From: Longimicrobiales bacterium
GTDB taxonomy: Bacteria; Gemmatimonadota; Gemmatimonadetes; Longimicrobiales; Gaopeijiaceae
DNA: 64,000 nt
Assembly (NCBI GenBank): GCA_035477395.1
Contig: DATIKQ010000033.1
Span: 5,862-69,861, forward strand
Direction of reading: 5' to 3'
The notes beneath the pieces were generated by a model, which saw nothing but the letters and a program-made list of their open reading frames with translations, did no database searches and was not told the origin of the DNA. The position numbers and the translations under genes were made by a program. Shown in pieces: positions 47,671 to 47,742 of this stretch. Positions within the stretch are counted from its first letter, which is position 1, and every line of letters begins with the position of its first letter.

Positions 47671-47742
47671 CTACCAGGTCACTACGCCGTTCCCGATCAG
47701 GGACAGTAGCGTTCCGATAAAGTCGAACAGAGAGCTGAACAT
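47671..47742 (-). CDS. Unannotated 23-codon micro-ORF (MFSSLFDFIGTLLSLIGNGVVTW)
   Basis: ATG lies 7 nt after AAGGAGGTGA, the strongest SD match I found in the window. The peptide is hydrophobic. Its TAG stop is 31 nt upstream of the HD-GYP ATG. It is too short for the supplied ORF track. Confidence 0.45.
   Translation of the reverse strand: MFSSLFDFIGTLLSLIGNGVVTW

Follow-up and report, generated by a model that had tools for sequence, protein, structure and literature searches.

A conserved micro-open reading frame and a predicted structured leader RNA upstream of MASE9-HD-GYP genes in Gemmatimonadota

Introduction

Small membrane proteins encoded beside their polytopic partners, and short leader open reading frames (ORFs) whose translation opens mRNA structure, are the described systems closest to the element analysed in this work: a 23-codon ORF (micro-ORF) and the leader RNA around it, upstream of the gene for a membrane HD-GYP cyclic di-GMP (c-di-GMP) phosphodiesterase in 64,000 nucleotides (nt) of a Longimicrobiales bacterium (phylum Gemmatimonadota; GenBank assembly GCA_035477395.1, contig DATIKQ010000033.1, positions 5,862 to 69,861 of the forward strand), referred to below as the window. 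The small membrane modulators (MgrB-PhoQ, SafA-PhoQ, MgtS-MgtA, AcrZ-AcrB, KdpF-KdpABC) share with it a length below 50 amino acids (aa), hydrophobicity, an unannotated ORF with a strong Shine-Dalgarno sequence (SD) of its own, and a position beside the gene of a polytopic membrane protein. The peptide described here differs from them in having 23 aa and no basic residue, in being amphipathic instead of uniformly hydrophobic, and in its presumed partner, MASE9-HD-GYP. Leader ORFs (secM-secA, mifM-yidC2, ermCL-ermC, mok-hok) share a strong SD before a short upstream ORF, and an mRNA helix that involves the segment between this ORF and the regulated start and has to be melted by a ribosome at the end of the ORF. 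In the present element, however, the 3' strand of the helix (P1) pairs with a strand about 190 nt upstream, past the ORF, and the helix encloses the ORF together with a structured domain instead of forming a local hairpin; its G-rich run is often too distant from the downstream start for a canonical SD, and no arrest motif is known.

Riboswitches and cis-regulatory leaders from Rfam likewise combine a conserved 5' leader, covarying helices, invariant unpaired nucleotides and a closing helix that reaches the downstream initiation region, whereas the leader considered here matched no family, carries AGCGRAG heptamers in its aptamer-like domain, closes its helix around a coding ORF and has no known ligand. 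The streptococcal SHP/Rgg and ComS-XIP/ComR systems use hydrophobic micro-ORF peptides of 17-23 aa with Gly/Trp-rich C-termini; the present peptide belongs to another phylum, has no Rgg/ComR neighbour and no basic N-terminus, and its ORF is co-oriented with, and linked through RNA structure to, an enzyme gene instead of neighbouring a regulator gene. Type I toxins (Hok, TisB, Ibs) also join a small hydrophobic peptide to long-range 5'-3' mRNA pairing, but the element studied here occurs as a single copy in strict synteny, leaves its SD exposed and gives no sign of an antisense RNA. Judged by these comparisons, it would resemble both a small membrane-protein modulator and a structure-opening leader ORF and fall outside all named families. 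No earlier description of the micro-ORF or its leader was found in the literature, and we know of no described leader in which a long-range helix encloses a structured domain and a coding ORF with purine heptamers.

Results

The micro-ORF and its Shine-Dalgarno sequence

The micro-ORF lies on the minus strand (47671..47742), running from an ATG at 47742 to a TAG at 47673..47671; it comprises 23 codons plus the stop, and its product is MFSSLFDFIGTLLSLIGNGVVTW. Its stop codon is separated by 31 nt from the ATG (47639) of the HD-GYP gene on the same strand. The coordinates, the translation and this gap, first given in a first-pass annotation, were all reproduced. The ORF is preceded by SD1, AAGGAGGTGA (47747..47756, minus strand), described there as followed by the ATG after 7 nt: the spacing is correct when counted from the GGAGG core, and amounts to 4 nt (GCGC) when counted from the end of the full 10-mer.

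The 10-mer occurred once when both strands of the window were counted (about 0.05 occurrences expected by chance from base composition, in a window of 70% guanine plus cytosine). When matches located 4-11 nt before the start codons of ORFs of at least 20 aa were ranked over the whole window, SD1 was the longest contiguous complement to the anti-SD (runners-up of 9 nt and 8 nt), in agreement with the earlier view that it is the strongest SD of the window. The micro-ORF was present in one copy in the window and in each of the related loci checked. A scan of positions 46000-49000 on both strands, which is a weak test, revealed no promoter-like site and no convincing terminator.

Related loci

The micro-ORF was present in about 60 related loci, always between the gene of a hypothetical protein (U243) and that of MASE9-HD-GYP, and its SD, start, frame, length and stop position recurred in them. 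Homologues of the HD-GYP protein of the window, at 58-90% identity, led to six orthologous loci, and all six showed the ORF, the SD and a nearly unchanged intergenic sequence around the ORF. A DNA pattern (CCCTCGGTCTGCC, 60-90 nt, AAGGAGG, 5-9 nt, ATG) retrieved 64 metagenome loci, 52 of them family members and 12 chance matches. The 13-mer, AAGGAGG and nearby ATG are invariant by construction in these 52 loci (ascertainment bias), and in three of them the patterned ATG was out of frame, the true start being an overlapping GTG. The six loci reached from the protein side placed no such constraint on these three elements, yet they were unchanged.

Three further loci from GTDB genomes (L001-L003) came from a scan with back-translated HD-GYP motifs, which returned 80 loci, mostly paralogues in many phyla, of which these three were relevant; they have the same gene arrangement (cassette), with HD-GYP proteins 35-42% and U243 proteins 30-42% identical to those of the window. 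Six loci of a Gemmatimonadaceae clade (L151-L156) also have the cassette.

Synteny was strict: each of 52 loci had a U243 homologue upstream in the same orientation, and a co-oriented HD-GYP gene followed in 35 of the 36 loci with enough sequence and in all nine distant loci. The distance from the micro-ORF stop to the HD-GYP start ranged from 22 to 42 nt, and the intergenic region was better conserved than the flanking proteins. Loci of HD-GYP paralogues from other phyla gave no match to the leader, and no comparable micro-ORF was present in acidobacterial MASE9-HD-GYP loci.

Evidence for coding

Fifty-three of the 56 complete main-clade copies kept the frame without indels and had exactly 23 codons, as in the window (47 distinct DNA sequences and 37 distinct peptides); the exceptions were one copy each of 24, 21 and 31 codons. 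Column entropy peaked at the third codon position (0.68, 0.31 and 1.24 for positions 1, 2 and 3, respectively), and the pooled pairwise ratio of nonsynonymous to synonymous differences (pN/pS) was 0.32 in the frame of the ORF vs. 1.12 and 2.86 in the other two frames; the pairs are phylogenetically non-independent, and the contrast between frames, being internal to the same sequences, was considered robust. Gly19 was invariant with all four glycine codons in use, Trp23 was invariant, and the stop codon stood at one fixed position with TAA, TAG and TGA all represented. The peptide consensus was MFSSLFD[LF]FG[STA][VL]L[SA]LLGNG[LV]V[TNS]W.

Comparison of the copies shows, at the level of sequence, a micro-ORF under purifying selection on its amino acids and with a length fixed within the clade. 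The conservation check proposed in the first-pass annotation (frame and dN/dS) was run in this way, and its proposal of an unannotated conserved micro-ORF was borne out by the preserved frame and the coding-type substitutions. As far as comparative evidence goes, the micro-ORF is a genuine and presumably translated small-protein gene, unannotated and conserved across Gemmatimonadota. Exact look-up did not find the 23-mers in a collection of 15 billion proteins, where only the 31-aa variant had been called, without a name; they would be missing because they fall below the size limits of gene callers. The peptide matched no Pfam, NCBIfam or PDB profile.

Properties of the peptide

The peptide is predicted to form a very hydrophobic, maximally amphipathic helix that gathers all its polar and small residues on one face. 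Its grand average of hydropathy is 1.3 and its net charge -1, without lysine or arginine; the helical hydrophobic moment was 0.41, a value reached by none of 2000 shuffles of the same composition. Modelled as a helix, one face is composed of S3/S4, D7, G10/S11, S14, N18 and T22, and D7 and N18 bracket a hydrophobic core of 10 of the 23 residues. The suggestion that it might be the precursor of an exported signal peptide was not sustained: the sequence has no basic n-region (no lysine or arginine), no A-x-A motif or other cleavage site and no lipobox, and it ends at residue 23, leaving nothing to export after the hydrophobic stretch.

The long-range helix P1

P1 is a helix of 12-17 base pairs (bp) in which a C-rich segment, located some 105 nt before the ORF, pairs with a G-rich segment just past the stop codon. 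The 5' strand, CCCCCUCGGUCUGCC (47836..47850, minus strand), was paired in the minimum free energy (MFE) fold, in the centroid fold and in the RNAalifold consensus (from 48 sequences); the 3' strand, GGCAGCCGAGGGGGG (47655..47669, minus strand; paired stretch GGCAGCCGAGGGGG), begins 1 nt past the micro-ORF stop and contains the run GAGGGGGG; nothing else ahead of the HD-GYP start resembles an SD. In the alignment, 94.8% of the cells of P1 alone were paired, and 95.7% for the tested structure composed of P1, the hairpin P3 and the SD1 hairpin, compared with 45-53% in controls in which the partners were slid by 1-3 columns. In the main clade, changes in the 3' strand always preserved pairing (UA/UG, GC/GU).

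Between clades the two strands covaried. The window pairs CCCCCUCGGuCUGCC with GGCAGCCGAGGGGG, L001 GGAGCCCCCGG with CCGGGGGCUCU, L002 ACCCCCAAUCUCUGCG with CGUAGAGAUUGGGGGU (17 bp, -33 kcal/mol) and L003 CCCCCUCCCUCG with CGGGGaGAGGGGG; in L156 (CCCCC..GGCGCC/GGCGUU..GGGGG) the segments GGCGCC and GGCGUU flank a C5/G5 core. P1 was present in the MFE fold of every one of L001-L003 and L151-L156, both strands differing compensatorily from the window and from each other. Duplex energies ranged from -23 to -40 kcal/mol, vs. a mean of about -14 kcal/mol with shuffled 3' strands (control made on seven Gemmatimonadaceae loci). P1 is supported by this covariation across the clades compared, and a ribosome that completes the micro-ORF would have to unwind it.

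The position of P1 was followed with respect to both genes. Its 3' strand begins 0-8 nt past the stop codon in all clades, and 31 of 47 distinct loci shared a spacing of 8 nt between the stop and the G-run. The G-run precedes the HD-GYP start by 7-17 nt in the main clade (15 nt in the window) and by 13-27 nt in the Gemmatimonadaceae clade; a GAGGGGG run stands 7-12 nt before the start in many loci and 13-17 nt in others. P1 thus keeps a closer relation to the end of the micro-ORF than to the start of HD-GYP. The coupling may consist of reinitiation or of clearing of the 5' untranslated region (UTR), and not of the release of a canonical SD in every lineage. A fusion of the micro-ORF to HD-GYP by read-through or frameshifting was also considered and rejected, the gaps of 22-42 nt showing no conservation of phase.

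P3, the heptamer repeats and other leader elements

P3 (47764..47800, minus strand) is a hairpin, CGCGGUUUCC ... GGAAGCCG-A-CG, that has a bulged A, carries the conserved motif AGCGGA in its loop and is followed by GAC. Changes on both sides were observed in 5 of its 9 pairs (UA/AU/CG, GC/AU), and all 43 distinct versions fold to the same stem. An all-against-all covariation scan recovered P3 at the top and as its sole helix, the other high scores being noise correlated with subfamilies; it gave no covarying helix for the AGCGRAG repeats or within the body of the ORF. The SD1 hairpin (AGGAG with CUCnCU of codons 3-5) fits the data and is invariant.

A purine-rich region (47801..47835, minus strand) between P1 and P3 carries four GAGCG/AGCGRAG repeats (47830-26, 47820-16, 47812-08 and 47807-03), and a fifth copy of the heptamer is located in the P3 loop (47783..47789, minus strand). 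The heptamer, AGCGRAG/GAGCGGAG, was near-invariant in the alignments and kept in every clade, with spacers that vary; no supported pairing partner was found for it. Since the repeats lie between two covarying helices, they should be inside the transcript, and their interpretation as DNA-level sites for a neighbouring regulator was set aside given the RNA helices on both sides. The repeats contain an SD-like GGAG and could be protein sites, decoys or an aptamer core. The domain formed by the repeats and P3 is probably a regulatory input which binds a protein or a ligand.

Another purine-rich tract, AGCGGAGAAAGGAGAA (47851..47866, minus strand), lies directly 5' of P1; it reads AAGGAGGAAnAAGGA in the main clade and is an A-run in the Gemmatimonadaceae clade. 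Rfam 15 had no family at gathering score in the leader, the six related loci examined had no match either, and a permissive search of the intergenic region (E up to 10) gave only chance-level matches (E of at least 1.9). With about 60 examples, the leader appears to be a previously undescribed conserved folded element. The sole match at gathering score in the window was a tRNA gene (52655..52728, plus strand).

Distant clades

In each of the nine distant loci a strong SD precedes a short hydrophobic ORF, and P1, AGCGRAG repeats and a P3-like hairpin with a GAC after it are also present. Their SD is AAGGAGGTGA, AAGGGAGGTGA or a close variant (GGGGGGTGA in L151). One of their peptides, MFDAIIDMIGALAGLLSGGYVQII, begins with GTG and is clearly homologous; others are MGSLWLVLLLGGTVRW (16 aa), MTYLMSLLSFAFGGWITAL (19 aa), MTYLMSLISFLFFGGWISIGS, MIPAPWLSGILADLFGCFAGWLTAA, MYTYSAKWYVEALEGILQFACTVITWTG, MDILIALIMRLTGVQTWA and MEWLTGLFCACFSFWAEWK. 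They have 16-28 aa and remain mostly hydrophobic; a Gly-rich turn and, near the end, a tryptophan are usually present.

A covariance model (R1) trained on the main clade only assigned 105-116 bits to held-out main-clade leaders, 38.5 to L002 and 27.9 to L001. The Gemmatimonadaceae leaders scored 16-23 bits, exactly at the expected position, and decoys sharing the search pattern 14-19 bits; because these ranges overlap, this group is only marginally separated by score.

Neighbouring genes

The downstream gene (46221..47639, minus strand) encodes a MASE9 plus HD-GYP c-di-GMP phosphodiesterase of 472 aa (Pfam HD_5, 4e-32; HD, 8e-22; MASE9, 6e-9) in which the HHEREDGAGYPDG motif is visible. The public call of this protein (427 aa) begins at an internal methionine; the longer form, of 472 aa from 47639, is supported by its conserved N-terminus and by homologue lengths of 455-480 aa.

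U243 (47902..48633, minus strand; 238-243 aa) lies directly upstream of the leader. It had no Pfam or NCBIfam match, and all of its at least 3000 homologues are named hypothetical, which suggest Met6 (48618) as the true start. The AlphaFold2 model (mean per-residue confidence, pLDDT, of 80) comprises an alpha/beta domain at the N-terminus and, past a disordered linker, two C-terminal beta-beta-beta-alpha repeats; among PDB structures these repeats came closest to the regulatory domain with which LeuA/citramalate synthase binds Leu/Ile (E 2e-4), with weaker matches to double-stranded RNA-binding domains and PUR repeats. U243 could be a reader of the AGCGRAG repeats. Right after the U243 stop there is a G+C-rich hairpin, CCCGGGCCCUCGGGCCCC (about 47880..47897, minus strand), without a U-tract; hairpins of different sequence occupy this position in related loci and might be terminators, processing sites or mRNA stabilisers.

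Convergent to the HD-GYP gene is that of a STAND-type regulator of 1131 aa with AAA_16 and tetratricopeptide repeat (TPR) domains (42783..46178, plus strand), and an AraC-type (HTH_18) gene lies beyond it. The position of the AAA_16-TPR gene is kept in the main and Gemmatimonadaceae clades, and it may belong to the same functional unit as the cassette. On the other side, a PF01663 phosphodiesterase/nucleotide pyrophosphatase gene (48850..50676, minus strand; PafA-like, NCBIfam 333 bits against a cut-off of 650) precedes U243, as it does in most main-clade loci with enough upstream sequence. In four of the six Gemmatimonadaceae loci (L151-L153 and L156) a sigma-54-dependent activator gene replaces it before the U243-like gene; these loci have a spacer of 300-600 nt before the leader, in which the A-run ends directly before the 5' strand of P1. 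The conserved neighbours were U243, HD-GYP, AAA_16-TPR, AraC-type and either the PF01663 phosphatase or the sigma-54 activator, with no Rgg/ComR-type receptor among them.

Discussion

The interpretation that we favour, and rate somewhat above even, is that the product of the micro-ORF is a small membrane peptide, and that its translation melts P1 and so ties the expression of HD-GYP to it. The cassette would be read in the order U243, structured leader RNA, micro-ORF and MASE9-HD-GYP. A ribosome would load at the exposed strong SD, translate the micro-ORF and unwind P1 at its stop codon; the opening of P1 would free the G-rich segment and the 5' UTR of HD-GYP, the translation of which would then depend strictly on that of the micro-ORF, beginning either at an unmasked initiation site or by reinitiation 22-42 nt downstream. 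The released peptide would most likely enter the membrane, pack its polar face on the transmembrane domain of MASE9 and modulate the phosphodiesterase, and the AGCGRAG-repeat/P3 domain would probably set the frequency of coupling by binding a protein or ligand. The first-pass annotation had proposed, among other roles, a leader ORF regulating HD-GYP translation. This is the most concretely supported of its readings, through the covariation of P1 and the place of the 3' strand of this helix next to the stop; the control itself we infer. Its core claims stood, and what it overlooked was that the ORF is embedded in a conserved structured RNA and invariably preceded by U243.

Amphipathic periodicity over the whole length suggests a structural role for the finished peptide, as a helix packing its polar face on something. 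A small membrane modulator of the MASE9 sensor is compatible with the hydrophobic and amphipathic peptide, with the strict linkage to MASE9-HD-GYP and with the ligand proposed for this domain: MASE9 has been inferred to bind a ligand within the membrane, with no partner known (Galperin & Chou, bioRxiv 10.1101/2021.11.05.467447). In the literature on MASE9-HD-GYP, no small-protein partner was found described.

Several observations weigh against this interpretation. The 5' strand of P1 is invariant in the main clade, in part by construction of the search pattern, so that the double-sided covariation rests on about 10 distant loci, and the folding z-score of the whole leader was only -1.7. The G-run is often too far from the HD-GYP start for a canonical SD, and the unmasking of an SD is therefore not a universal form of the coupling. 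Between clades the sequence and length of the peptide (16-31 aa) shift greatly while the RNA elements stay recognisable; a peptide that drifts far more than its RNA fits a system in which translation matters over the product. A core of 10 residues without any basic residue makes a classical transmembrane topology uncertain. Finally, translation, co-transcription, membrane insertion and the contact between the peptide and MASE9 are all steps that we infer from sequence.

Part of this evidence bears on a purely cis-acting leader ORF, in which the passage or pausing of ribosomes would remodel P1 and control HD-GYP translation or the fate of the mRNA, the peptide itself having no function; a variant would be arrest of the nascent chain, as in TnaC, in response to a small molecule sensed within the exit tunnel. 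We regard this as a serious possibility, though clearly the less probable one. The deepest conservation is found at the level of RNA and position (SD, presence of the ORF, stop abutting P1, P1 and P3), and the peptides drift from MFSSLFD...W (23 aa) to MGSLWLVLLLGGTVRW (16 aa), MTYLMSLLSFAFGGWITAL (19 aa) and MYTYSAKW... (28 aa). The invariant residues of the main clade are C-terminal (G17, N18, G19 and W23), as in arrest peptides, and a chain of 23 residues would still be within the ribosome at termination. A mere track for ribosomes, however, needs neither the amphipathic periodicity, matched by 0 of 2000 shuffles, nor a hydrophobic character in every clade; purifying selection spans the whole peptide and not just its C-terminus, and a conserved tryptophan placed 0-6 residues from the stop across clades is unusual for an arrest motif.

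A more ambitious version of the scheme, which we hold to be improbable though worth stating, would make the element a new class of riboregulator: the repeat/P3 domain would sense a ligand or bind U243, whose C-terminal half is similar to a regulatory domain that binds amino acids, and would in this way set translation of the micro-ORF; that translation would open P1 and license HD-GYP, and the peptide would be an intramembrane ligand or subunit of MASE9.

The peptide might instead be a signal of the SHP/XIP sort, exported or intracellular, acting on MASE9 from outside or on the TPR of the AAA_16-TPR regulator. Its size, hydrophobicity, unannotated status and Trp/Gly C-terminus recall SHP and ComS, and the AAA_16-TPR gene is convergent to HD-GYP in the window and in the main and Gemmatimonadaceae clades. 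But no exporter, oligopeptide permease, processing protease or regulator of the Rgg/RRNPP type is seen in the conserved neighbourhood, the N-terminus lacks basic residues, and the tight structural coupling to HD-GYP would be left unexplained, all of which make this proposal quite unlikely. To our knowledge, no peptide-signalling system of this sort is known in Gemmatimonadota.

Still harder to sustain is a module similar to type I toxins, with a membrane-damaging peptide and an mRNA silenced by 5'-3' fold-back as in hok/mok or tisB. The short hydrophobic peptide, the long structured leader and the ORF-enclosing helix recall the fold-back of hok; against this, a single copy occupies one strictly syntenic chromosomal position across the phylum, while type I toxins are typically patchy and multi-copy, P1 does not sequester the SD of the micro-ORF, the scan of 46000-49000 (a weak test) gave no promoter-like site for an antisense RNA, and the charged C-terminal tail common in such toxins is missing. 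Least credible of all is a chance open frame in a structured non-coding RNA or riboswitch, conserved through RNA structure only, as the highly conserved and structured RNA around it, the ability of SD1 to pair with codons 3-5 and a few unusually fixed synonymous sites (e.g. AGC at codon 3) would allow, but which the peak at codon position 3, the frame-specific asymmetry of pN/pS, the varying identity of a stop at fixed position, the lack of a covarying helix within the ORF body, and the survival of SD, start and open frame where the sequence has diverged past alignment all contradict.

A predicted micro-protein conserved across a poorly studied phylum has been missing from a collection of 15 billion sequences, and this peptide is a concrete candidate for a partner or ligand of the MASE9 sensor domain. 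The leader lends itself to deposition as an RNA family and to tests as a device for translational coupling, and these features together open the regulation of a c-di-GMP phosphodiesterase in Gemmatimonadota to experiment. Were the riboregulator version true, the cassette would constitute a self-contained circuit of RNA, peptide and enzyme for c-di-GMP turnover across Gemmatimonadota.

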